Position numbers and translations under genes: made by a program. DNA of 62,623 nt, the filler included, from Diploschistes diacapsis (taxonomy: Eukaryota): assembly GCA_023645945.1 (NCBI GenBank). It is 14 parts of 14 records of this genome, joined end to end, with 100 filler letters (N's around TTAATTAATTAA, not from the genome) between each part and the next. Parts side by side here need not be neighbours in the genome. Positions count along the whole stretch, not along the records: positions 58,295 to 62,623 come from JALAIB010001724.1; 13 more parts are not named here. One strand, 5' to 3'. Shown here piece after piece: positions 58,195-62,623 of this stretch (position 1 is its first letter; every line of letters begins with the position of its first letter). Below the pieces are notes generated by a model. That model made no database searches. It was not told where the DNA came from and was given only the letters and a program-made list of their open reading frames with translations.

Positions 58195-58299
58195 NNNNNN
58201 NNNNNNNNNNNNNNNNNNNNNNNNNNNNNNNNNNNNNNTTAATTAATTAANNNNNNNNNNNNNNNNNNNNNNNNNNNNNNNNNNNNNNNNNNNNCTAAA

Positions 58300-58365
58300 A
58301 CACGGATACTGATACTGTCAGTGTCCGTGTTACTGACACGGCCGTGTCAGTGTCAGTGACGGCTA
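58300..58365. repeat. Palindrome-rich transposon-terminus-like sequence (hAT-like end)
   Basis: Perfect 20-bp palindrome ACTGACACGGCCGTGTCAGT (58332-58351), a second hairpin at 58300-58330, minus strand begins TAG. Confidence 0.45.
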
Positions 58366-59004
58366 GCCTAATTTATAACACTAAAACGTTCTAATCAAAA
58401 CTAATAAACTATAAAAATAAAAAAAGAATAAACTAACTAATCCTATCAAAGATAAATAGACTAGAACGGTGCATCTACAAGAAAGGAACTAATCAAAAGG
58501 AGTGCTTTATAAATATAAAAAGCAACTAATAAGCGAGTCGCTCATATGCTAGTAGGGGAAGATGTGGTTTCACTACGGAGTTAAGCCCTAAGTCCGAAAA
58601 GACTTGGCAGAATACCTTTTATTTGTAAATCTGTAACTAGGCAATTTAAAGACACCATGCAATCGAATCACAATATCATATCAGTCCTGGAATGGTCGAG
58701 AAGCACAACATCCTCCCAATGGTAAAATATGCCAGTGACGTTTTTTCGATTGGCTCTGTTTTTGGCCTCGAGGTGGGGAAACGGTGATCAGCGCAGCCTC
58801 TGCCTTGCTTACCCAATTACCACGGAAATTAGATCTCCCATCTACAAAGTTACTACTTAAGCTTGCCGCAGTCTTGTCAGCTCTGTTGTCTTTCCTGGCG
58901 CAAAGCCCTCCGACGGAAACCCCAGCACCGTGTACTCGATTCCAGCTCTTGTTTACTCGAAAACCAACCTGCAGGCCTCTTTTGCCCTCCCTAGCCCGAC
59001 CAAA

Positions 59005-59242
59005 ATGAGTCGACTGCCAGCCGTTTTGTGCCTCTTGTTCGCTATCACAATGGTGGCCAGCGTCCCTATCGATATTACTAAAAGTAAGTAGGTTCCTCGT
59101 ACAAGGTCCAAAGCTTCCTCATATCAATCCCGCATTAGAGCCTATAGCGGAGGGGTTCGTGAGAAGCCCTCTGAGTGATTGGGATACGCCTCTTCCAGAT
59201 GATGAAATGGGGGGGAACTTGGTTCCTACTCAGGGGCTATAG
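59005..59242 (+). CDS. 60-aa secreted peptide, candidate RiPP precursor; exons 59005-59083 and 59139-59242
   Basis: CAAAATG context, GTAAGT...TAG 55-nt intron; product MSRLPAVLCLLFAITMVASVPIDITKKPIAEGFVRSPLSDWDTPLPDDEMGGNLVPTQGL*. Confidence 0.65.
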
Positions 59243-59431
59243 AGAAGCTACAGAGAATGAAGTTGGGCAGGGCGTGGGCCGGAGAAGGATGAATCGAATA
59301 ATCAGCCTTTGCGCTCTCGTGGCTCTATTTGATCCACATGCAATTTGGTTTGGTGTCTACCGTTCGTTTCAAAACTTGAATCATGTGTAATAGCCTTCCT
59401 TTCCCCTACACTTAAGCGGGGAAAGATATCT

Positions 59432-60392
59432 TCATTCCGTAACTTGGGTTTGCGATACCTCGACGTATGGCGAGCCACTGGGACAGAACCTATAGCGATC
59501 GAGCTCGCTCTCAACGCCCTCAACATATCGCCAGCAAGCGGTATGCTCCCTCGCCCAAGCCTCCAATTGTCCCCAGTCTCGGCACATTCTGACCTGGCCC
59601 AGCCCACTGGCTTGGTCGGGCTGGTAGCCGGTGTACATGGGCACATCGCTGGCGTCGCACATAATCTCGTCCCGGAGAACATTGAGGCAATGAAGCACAT
59701 GGTGCCACGGCTGCCCTTGCTCCTTGTTCGAGTGATATGCGATCAGGGACCCGTGCAGCACTTTCTGCAGGACTGGTTAGCCTAGCCTCTACCAACATAT
59801 TCATGTCAATGTCCATGGGAGATAGGCAGAGAAGGCGAGGCCATCGACCGCGGAGCAACCTACGACGCAGTGAAGATTGTGGTAGGCGTTTATGAGATAG
59901 ATCCCTTTCGAGTTGTCCCACGGGAACCGCTGCGCGCGCGGCAGTCCCAACTCTCGTGCGTAAGTATCGTCAAGGGCAACGAACCCAAGGTCGAAGTTGG
60001 TCGAGTTTTCCCAGATGTAACTTTGCGCGGCATCATTTTCGACATCTATTGGCAACCAGGGTCTCGGAACGGATCTTGTTAGGCCCACTAGGATACCTTA
60101 TTAGATGCTCGGCTTCAGTAGCCCTGGAAAGGATCGAGGGAGTCGTACCATATTCGGATGTATCTGGATGTTGCGGAGCTTCCACACCCTCGAGATTGGC
60201 AGAACTACCCAAGCCTGTGCTACGTCTATAGAGCAGGAGTAGAACAGCAAGGTTCAATGCTAACGAAAAGAAAAGCGAAACCCTTTCGACGCGATTGCGA
60301 AAAGCTCGTCCGAGACTCTCCAGCTTTTCATCTTGAGAGTTGCTTCGAGACCCTGGTATACAATGTTTATGTTGATGTAAATGCTTATCCAT
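59432..60392 (-). CDS. DUF3328/UstYa-family oxidase (~266 aa); exons 60392-60149, 60087-59864, 59764-59432
   Basis: N-terminal TM; two HxxHC motifs (AYHNLHCV, WHHVLHCLNVLRDEIMCDAS); CRDWGQLEAWA. Confidence 0.92.
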
Positions 60393-61485
60393 TCTTTAGG
60401 CATATGAAAGGCAAGGAAAGTAACCATCAAAACAACGCGTGGAACAAGGAGCACTAAGAAGAAAAAATGCTCGGGGAGATATCCGCCCGTTTACCTTATC
60501 GACCAGTAGGCTAATGACGTCTGATCAAGGACTTTCCATCGAGATAAGCTGGAAAACCCTCATGCCTCTCACTGATCGTATAAAGTAGATGACATGTCCT
60601 GCATGGTGGCTCAGACGAACAAGGATACCCTCCTTTATTCGTTCAGTAGGCGCATCTACTAATGCTCAATACCCTGCCAGATTTCATAATGCATTTTGGC
60701 GATTGACGCTATACGACCGGCTGAGCATCATATGCAGCGCACTTGCTCAAAGTACAGTCACGGGTGTGATATAGAGTGGATATATATAAGCGACACCACA
60801 ACGGGTTACCTTTCCAAACTCAGGTTGCTTCTAAAAGGTAAGGCTTTCCCCGGCTTAGAGCCAGGGATGACAAGGGCCTGGACCACTGCTGCGAGGCTCG
60901 GCCACAGGGCATGGTACGTCATGGAGTCAATCAATCAATTCTAGTACTGAGAACTTGTTGTCTAATAATACCACAATGATTCAAGTGATCAGCTACTATT
61001 CACGTATGAATCCAAAGGCCTTGTAACGCTCCAACACCCCTCTTCTTCTTCTTGTCCTTGAGAAACTCCCGATCACGCCTCGTGGGTGTCTCCCGGGGAT
61101 TGCGAGTAGACCTTTGGTTGAAGATTTCGTCTGAATGTAGTTAGAGCTTAATAATTTGTTGTATAATACATTTTATGCATAACACGTGTTGATACAGTGC
61201 TCGGTGTTAATGTATCCTACTTATGGCATTGGAAAACCAAAGATTTATACTATGTACGGAATCAACATTGGAATTAAGCTTATGTGAATTGATTTAACAG
61301 TTTCTCCCTACACCAGATCTGCGCAAAGCTAAAAAGAGAGTCACTATTTTTTTTATTTAAGATATGGGTTTCTGATTTCCTTTACATTAATATGGTTGAA
61401 AACTCAAAAGAACATAGATTCATTATCGAACACAGTTAAACTGAAATATAGTGTCTATAAGGTAGGGGGCTGTCGATATAATTTA

Positions 61486-62112
61486 GGCCCTGTTTGGCGC
61501 CACGTAGAGCTGCTCTACGGTAGAGCGAATCTACGTAGATGACGGCCGTCATCTACGTAGAGGTAGCTCTACGTAACGCGTTTGACAGCTAATCCTATCA
61601 CGCTGGCGTTTACTATCCGCGGCCTAATAATCCAACCTCGGTCTAGTAGTTTAACCTCGGCCGAGTCTTTCAGTCTTTTTAACTTTCTCTACGTATACGT
61701 GATAATATCTTTACGATGCCCCTCGCAGGCGTAATATTTATTATAATATTGAGTTACGTATAATTACGCAGCATCAGCGAATAAAACGACGATTATTCTA
61801 CCCTTATTTTCGTAATATCTGGATTAAAAATCGTCCATTTTAGCCAGATAAGAAGGAGAAATAAGTAGCGGAGGTGGCGGCGATAGGGTTTCTATTCATT
61901 TTAAATCAATTCGTAGAGTATTATAAGAGTTCTCGAGCTCTTACAACATTTTACGATAATTTTGGTGGTCGTAAAACGCGTAAACGTTCTACGACGTTTA
62001 TATAGACGCTTTACGAAAAAAAACGTTTGATAAGAGCGTAGAGTGTCATGTAACCTCGTACAAGCTACGTAGAGGCTCTACACATGCTCTACGCTGACCA
62101 CCAAACAGGGCC
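61486..62112. mobile_element. PIF/Harbinger (Tourist-like) non-autonomous element, 627 bp, RIP-mutated
   Basis: Perfect 12-bp TIR GGCCCTGTTTGG/CCAAACAGGGCC, TTA/TAA flanks, subterminal CTACGTAG and GCTCTAC repeats. Confidence 0.7.
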
Positions 62113-62623
62113 TAATTATAATTGCGTTAAGATAATATTAATTTATCATTATTAGGATGTTCTTTTTAGCGATCTTGTTTCGTGATCTATAATTTCAAGC
62201 GAAGTAACTTATTTTATTATATTTAAAGCACTTCTTTCCTTTTATTGAAGGTCCCCCGTTAGGTCTTTTAGCACCTTTCTTCTGATTGGGCCGGGGTTTA
62301 TTAATGAAGGTATCGAGATCTCTGACGTCGTTATCTATATGTCTTGTATTTTATATGTTTTTTATATAATTAGTACGGTAACGAAGTCTTAGTTCAGTAG
62401 TCTTATTTCGATTAAAACGACGTTTCTATTTTCAATTAAATAATCGATCGTTTATAATTATTATTCTGGCTTAAAAGGTCGATAAACTTCGAAACTAATT
62501 TTAATTACGTATAAATTCATTTTTAATTAAATCTTTAAATTTATGTTTATATATTTCTATTAAAGCTTCCTTATCTTATTTAATTAATCTAACGTATTTC
62601 TAAAATTTCGCCGTGTATTTTAA
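62113..62623. mobile_element. AT-rich RIP-degraded repeat of unassigned family
   Basis: TpA-rich, CpA-poor, CpG retained; no ORF. Confidence 0.45.

Follow-up and report, generated by a model that had tools for sequence, protein, structure and literature searches.

A conserved pair of a small secreted peptide gene and a DUF3328/UstYa oxidase gene in a Diploschistes diacapsis assembly: a candidate minimal RiPP module

The analysis presented here defines a conserved minimal pair of genes in a genome assembly of Diploschistes diacapsis, in which a two-exon gene for a small secreted peptide lies beside an intact gene for a DUF3328/UstYa oxidase, with a counterpart in Sclerotinia sclerotiorum that shares the same peptide motif. 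Judged from sequence and conservation, the pair probably constitutes a minimal dikaritin-like RiPP module, that is, a small secreted precursor with one unit and a dedicated DUF3328 oxidase, inherited together in at least the probable lichen fungus and Sclerotinia; likewise, the peptide is likely to be the substrate of the oxidase. The first-pass annotation of this DNA had proposed such a two-gene module, a proposal that gains support from the Sclerotinia neighbour carrying the conserved motif.

The two genes and their contig

The window, i.e. the whole stretch of DNA analysed (62,623 nucleotides), consists of contigs of about 4.4 kb strung together by 13 linkers, about one per 4.45 kb, of the form N44-TTAATTAATTAA-N44. 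Since these linkers connect unrelated contigs, neighbourhood across a linker is meaningless. Both genes lie, as originally described, within one 4.3-kb contig (G000:C807, window positions 58295-62623; Table 1), on which no gene besides these two, and no NRPS or PKS, was found. The flanks, described at first as transposon relics, do contain multicopy repeats on either side; the right-hand element, which we take to resemble a PIF/Harbinger-type MITE, has terminal inverted repeats flanked by TTA/TAA, and a further AT-rich repeat reaches the end of the contig. The contig is probably that of the lichen fungus: out of ten ORFs of the window that were looked up, six had an entry in the protein collection, and four of the six fall into 90% clusters together with proteins labelled Diploschistes diacapsis, a lichen-forming Lecanoromycete. 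The database labels describe metagenome-assembled sequence, so that its origin could be another fungus within the lichen.

Table 1. Features of the peptide/DUF3328 contig, in positions of the window
Feature	Position	Strand	Remarks
Peptide gene, exon 1: signal-peptide-like N-terminus and short xPI pro-segment	59005..59083	+	79 nt, phase-1 donor, ATG at 59005
Peptide gene, intron	59084..59138	+	GT-AG, 55 nt, weak branch point
Peptide gene, exon 2 including stop	59139..59242	+	Cys-free, acidic, one Trp, one Phe, no Tyr
Conserved block, Phe then VRxPLSDWDTxLP	59156..59197	+	Tyr replaces Phe in Sclerotinia; matched to the Sclerotinia row by eye
DUF3328/UstYa gene, exon 1	60149..60392	-	Membrane anchor, aa 38-56
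DUF3328/UstYa gene, exon 2	59864..60087	-	First HxxHC motif
DUF3328/UstYa gene, exon 3	59432..59764	-	Second HxxHC motif and stop
Multicopy repeat of ~300 bp, left of the peptide gene	58371..58680	.	Many copies, 82-88% identity
Multicopy MITE-like element	61483..62115	.	Perfect 15-nt terminal inverted repeats

Spliced across its intron, whose coordinates are exactly those first claimed, the peptide gene encodes 60 amino acids; use of a second in-frame acceptor would give a 57-aa peptide that retains the conserved block. The 60-aa peptide has an ER signal peptide by a hydropathy rule, in keeping with the 19-aa signal listed for its Sclerotinia homologue, and no 6-mer is repeated in it, so that repeated cores are absent. 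Regarding dibasic sites, the claim that KR is missing stands, and extends to RR, with the small correction that one KK pair, followed by Pro, spans the splice junction; a single Arg is present. The mature peptide has no Tyr and hence no Tyr core of the ustiloxin/phomopsin type, and the contig has no tyrosinase gene. The block at 59156-59197 presumably comprises the core plus a recognition or cleavage element.

Searching its own genome for paralogues of the peptide gave none. Protein searches used unspliced pieces as queries: word-based searching with the 77-aa frame of exon 2, or with residues 38-77 thereof, gave no candidate, an Atlas search gave no usable match, and phmmer, run with exon 2 on 1.84 billion representatives, found two matches, both rejected as long repetitive proteins. 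The word-based searches also missed the Sclerotinia protein discussed below and are therefore insensitive for this peptide.

The oxidase gene, earlier annotated as an intact DUF3328 with two HxxHC motifs, is indeed an open frame of 266 aa over three exons, with HNLHC at 151, HVLHC at 178 and, on hydropathy only, an N-terminal membrane anchor formed by one hydrophobic 19-mer. Its exon-3 frame matches Pfam UstYa (PF11807) with an E-value of 5e-12 and 46.5 bits against a cut-off of 25, and the gene scores 60.1 bits with the same profile in the genome search. Relative to its homologues it lacks a short stretch and ends in a shortened C-terminus, while the conserved Cys residues and both HxxHC motifs are kept; a search of solved structures with the DUF3328 alignment gave no match. 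The two stop codons are 189 bp apart, in agreement with the roughly 190 bp reported before.

A counterpart pair in Sclerotinia sclerotiorum

When the S. sclerotiorum enzyme SS1G_07229 is compared with the DUF3328 loci of this genome, its best match is the window gene, which scores 230 bits while the next locus reaches 125; over exon 3 the identity is 64%, and at most 48% for the other loci. From the locus numbering we infer that SS1G_07229 is sscle_06g050830, the DUF3328 gene adjoining Sscle06g050820, which in turn has a methyltransferase gene on its other side (PMC6941272). The latter small gene, highly expressed, is SS1G_07230 (PMC5381539); it encodes 82 aa with a 19-aa signal peptide and no Cys, has been classed as S. 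sclerotiorum-specific (PMC4480369) and is published as a species-specific effector candidate, cDNA-cloned and causing no necrosis on expression in plants (PMC10346375). With 298 nt in the gene and 82 aa in the product, about 49 nt would be left for an intron.

Window exon 2 and the mature sequence of SS1G_07230 (PMC4039746) share VRxPLSDWDTxLP, with 11 of 13 residues identical in a by-eye comparison to one row; taken as one pre-specified comparison, the probability of such a match by chance is about 2e-8. In both peptides the block is followed by GG and then, near the end, by VP, and SDWD occurs at only two places in the secretome table of PMC4039746. Unlike the window peptide, SS1G_07230 carries Tyr at the Phe position, a KR site and one more, degenerate unit that shares xEYVRxP. 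The latter motif is thus present in both units of SS1G_07230, and another small Sclerotinia peptide, SS1G_11769, has it too; the sequence downstream varies. SS1G_11769 is listed as a 34-aa mature secreted peptide with EYVRxP (PMC4039746), and its numbering suggests proximity to a DUF3328 pair on chromosome 12.

With these data the peptide gene is very probably real. Its weak branch point, with no CTRAY, and the three protein searches lacking a database homologue would be expected of a chance ORF, a reading that is largely refuted and highly improbable in view of the 11/13 block match to the neighbour of the best-match enzyme and of an exon 1 typical of the family.

The Sclerotinia locus also contains a methyltransferase and a transporter (PMC6941272), both missing from C807; according to the same source, the three Sclerotinia genes are co-expressed in one of nine parameter sets, the threshold of that paper being three. 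In this regard, the window pair could be what is left of a larger Tyr-based cluster in decay, after loss of the methyltransferase and transporter genes, one unit and the Tyr, and would then make little or no product. The Phe in place of the homologue's Tyr, the one unit instead of two, the absent accessory genes, the repeats on both flanks and the deletion and shortened C-terminus of the enzyme would all agree with such decay. Nevertheless, neither frame is interrupted and the splice sites are canonical, the enzyme retains its two HxxHC motifs and conserved Cys residues, the LSDWDT block is unaltered, and across the genes the GC and dinucleotide indices give no sign of repeat-type decay. Moreover, Phe can serve as a cross-link partner, as in victorin, which is cyclised via Phe and Leu (PMC9233826). 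We therefore consider a remnant very unlikely and retain the reading of a functional two-gene module.

Beyond Sclerotinia, the 11 closest database enzymes show 50-65% identity over exon 3 and include those of Botrytis, Sclerotinia, Hymenoscyphus, Talaromyces and three lichen fungi. Orthologues identified to species or genus are those of Botrytis fragariae, B. deweyae, B. tulipae, Ciborinia, S. trifoliorum and Hymenoscyphus fraxineus. A 1405-aa Talaromyces model (P0029), in which the DUF3328 orthologue is fused to a nucleoside-phosphorylase/NTPase/TPR-like protein, is probably a gene-model merger. The accession prefixes neighbouring six orthologues were absent among the matches listed in the supplements of the KEP survey. 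A search for DUF3328 loci gave three from 165 metagenome candidates and none from 86 candidates in prokaryote genomes or 100 in viral contigs. L042, the closest homologue from the metagenomes and 71% identical to SS1G_07229 over exon 3, has neither a signal-peptide gene nor the block motif in its 4.5 kb, and the short or distant loci L043 and L044 have no peptide gene or motif either, so that the expectation of a similar peptide beside the closest DUF3328 homologues was borne out in Sclerotinia, with its shared block, and failed at L042; the peptide is present at one of two informative homologous loci. An attempt to trace the same cluster in the Diploschistes genome through the methyltransferase upstream of L042 led nowhere.

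Our search of the literature, outside which most subscription papers lie, found none linking SS1G_07230 or the block motif to DUF3328, and a motif search returned unrelated matches only. The available passages and tables on SS1G_07230 do not name it as a RiPP precursor.

Small secreted partners of DUF3328 genes

The UstYa profile gives 46 matches on 27 contigs in this 29-Mb genome. An exon-1 rule (ATG, hydrophobic stretch, small-x-Pro motif and phase-1 donor at nt 67-85), written after the DUF3328 loci had been seen, matches 12 of the 27 DUF3328 loci (218 kb), including that of the window, and misses the other 15; it has no match in 40 control stretches (372 kb) or in 58 kb of the window. One control stretch, C58, holds a DUF3328 gene overlooked by the profile search, about 1 kb from a gene for a secreted product of 98 aa that has one exon and two KR sites; this neighbour agrees with the wider pattern of small secreted partners and not with the intron rule. 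With 27 contigs plus C58, the DUF3328 set is unusually large for a 29-Mb genome, and most of its members have a small secreted partner gene.

Several of the partners found with the exon-1 rule are clear repeat precursors. Among 16 hand-picked partner models, an exact 6-mer is repeated in ten, one has degenerate repeats by eye and five, the window peptide and four others, have none; three models besides the window peptide contain Trp and lack Tyr. This survey, together with the occurrence of the exon-1 pattern at 12 of 27 loci and in 0 of 40 controls, indicates that the small gene is built like the clear repeat precursors of its genome. By the same token, the other non-repetitive and the other Trp-containing, Tyr-free partners mean that neither a single unit nor Trp without Tyr is unique to it.

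The survey yielded further observations. Repeat precursors make up at least ten of the DUF3328 partners; their cores are distinct, and several of these precursors are cut at a single Arg and not at KR. Trp-containing, Tyr-free repeat precursors adjoin DUF3328 genes at L056:3514 (-), L057:2952 (-) and L060:4740 (+), and these are a better entry to Trp chemistry than the single-unit gene. A second non-repetitive precursor-like gene (L047:2778-2984 (+), G000:C4353) encodes 49 aa, is divergent from its DUF3328 and has Tyr and Trp spaced four residues. Elsewhere, a precursor-like gene (L046:3462 (-), G000:C3223) apparently encodes each repeat in an exon of its own, the introns falling at one constant point of the repeat; another (L067:6513 (+), G000:C602), with Trp units in different frames, looks frameshifted; and a 232-aa secreted protein adjoining a DUF3328 gene (L059:3242 (-), G000:C4240) consists of some 40 five-residue Arg-Asp repeats with no aromatic core.

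A related pattern is found in Sclerotinia, where four of 70 effector candidates adjoin one of 21 DUF3328 genes by locus number, against 0.21 expected (P ~5e-5) on the assumption of ~11,130 genes, as inferred from the locus numbering; one of the four was the entry point of the analysis, and small secreted genes may cluster near DUF3328 genes for other reasons. This adjacency suggests that some Sclerotinia candidates have been assayed unprocessed. The four are Sscle02g012940 (SsINE1), 06g050820, 10g080580 and 16g107890 (tables of PMC5381539 and PMC6941272). SsINE1 alone kills plant cells on expression and can thus be active without modification; the main text of its paper does not mention DUF3328, RiPP or Kex2.

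A joint reading, which we put forward as possible but doubtful, would be that the DUF3328 enzymes whose genes lack a repeat precursor, roughly two thirds of the total, usually act on secreted, often unannotated peptides with one or two units. The pair would then represent a family common to two fungal classes, whose product would carry an oxidation or cross-link at the conserved Trp block by a chemistry outside the dikaritins compared, and several small Sclerotinia candidates, SsINE1 included, would be RiPP precursors. Surveys of fungal RiPPs rely on repeats and KR sites, by which 31.8% of DUF3328 genes have been linked to a precursor (PMC7329392). In this regard, the window locus provides a concrete, conserved, repeat-free precursor candidate as well as a search rule, namely a small signal-peptide gene, in many cases interrupted at nt 70-82 by a phase-1 intron, beside DUF3328, and since only two genes are involved expression would be easy and the question of orphan DUF3328 genes becomes testable.

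Proposed processing and comparison with known systems

As a family, DUF3328 enzymes form dimers that are anchored in the membrane, depend on copper and O2 and expose their HxxHC site to the organelle lumen (PMC12435403), and a substrate with a signal peptide would consequently meet the enzyme there. According to the model that we propose, the precursor would enter the secretory pathway, encounter DUF3328 in the lumen and be oxidised within the conserved block, by cross-link, hydroxylation or desaturation, after which housekeeping proteases would trim it. Alternatively, the conserved secreted peptide could act unmodified, as a signal or in an effector-like manner, with DUF3328 travelling along and modifying something else. 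DUF3328 enzymes also use non-ribosomal and polyketide substrates (PMC12048977, PMC12435403), only the above-mentioned 31.8% of their genes lie near a repeat precursor (PMC7329392), the Sclerotinia homologue has been treated as a proteinaceous effector candidate, and L042 retains the enzyme with no visible peptide. We find this alternative unlikely, considering that adjacency and motif are preserved from Lecanoromycetes to Leotiomycetes, that the contig has no NRPS or PKS, that the Sclerotinia homologue causes no necrosis in plants and that precursor-like genes adjoin most DUF3328 genes of this genome.

If the peptide is the substrate of the oxidase, we would tentatively assign [FY]VR as an element for recognition or for Kex2-type cleavage at a single Arg, and the downstream Trp segment as the modified core, because [FY]VR is constant across the Sclerotinia units and SS1G_11769 while the following sequence varies. 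The x-Pro next to [FY]VR on its downstream side would suit dipeptidyl trimming by Ste13, leaving the Trp block as the product. In line with this assignment, Kex2 requires Arg at P1 and accepts varied residues at P2, so that a single Arg can suffice (PMC8528282). The [FY]VRxP unit might itself be the core, a less probable arrangement in which the aromatic-VRxP unit would echo the known YVIP and YVIG cores (PMC7329392) and Phe would act as cross-link partner, as it does in victorin (PMC9233826), and a core spanning both elements, or some other arrangement, seems rather unlikely.

With the dikaritins ustiloxin, phomopsin, asperipin-2a, victorin and epichloecyclin the window pair shares a signal-peptide precursor beside a DUF3328 gene with two HxxHC motifs. 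A 2022 review counts five known dikaritins (PMC10512285), and asperipin-2a needs a single DUF3328 (PMC7329392). In contrast to dikaritins, the window peptide lacks tandem repeats, KR/RR sites and Tyr, and its block resembles no dikaritin core compared, the comparison covering a set of published cores. As repeats and dibasic sites, two defining precursor features, are both missing, we have not filed the pair as a KEP.

The earlier suggestion of an undescribed precursor type, built on the single unit, the Trp and the missing Tyr, lacks support in that form, since other partners in this genome and published surveys already show these traits. Among repeats linked to DUF3328, Trp occurs in 20.5% and Tyr in only 65.6%, about a third being without Tyr (PMC7329392); together with the partners in this genome and the Phe/Leu cyclisation of victorin, these values rule out Trp content or the lack of Tyr alone as a novelty. 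Single-unit, Tyr-free and Trp-containing DUF3328 partners having been reported or predicted before, the novelty of the locus is smaller than claimed.

Single-repeat gigA-like genes adjoin DUF3328 in Aciculosporium take and Periglandula ipomoeae (PMC10540207), and resemble the window pair in having a one-unit precursor beside DUF3328. They differ in belonging, as reduced forms, to a multi-repeat family that has a kexin gene and a Tyr core already known, whereas the window peptide family is known from one- and two-unit forms only and has no characterised product. Effector candidates have been noted as dikaritin precursors in Venturia, where the passages concerned deal with repeat proteins only (PMC9632046). 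The closest likeness is that to SS1G_07230/SS1G_07229, with a best-match enzyme, an adjacent small Cys-free secreted gene and the shared VRxPLSDWDTxLP, although the Sclerotinia locus has two units, Tyr for Phe, a KR site and a methyltransferase and transporter nearby. Finally, the lichen RiPP clans R1 and R2 are Lecanoromycete DUF3328 clusters without a repeat precursor, for which a single-core or unlinked precursor has been suggested (PMC12048977); no precursor has been identified for these clans, whereas the window locus offers a candidate backed by conservation in a second fungal class.
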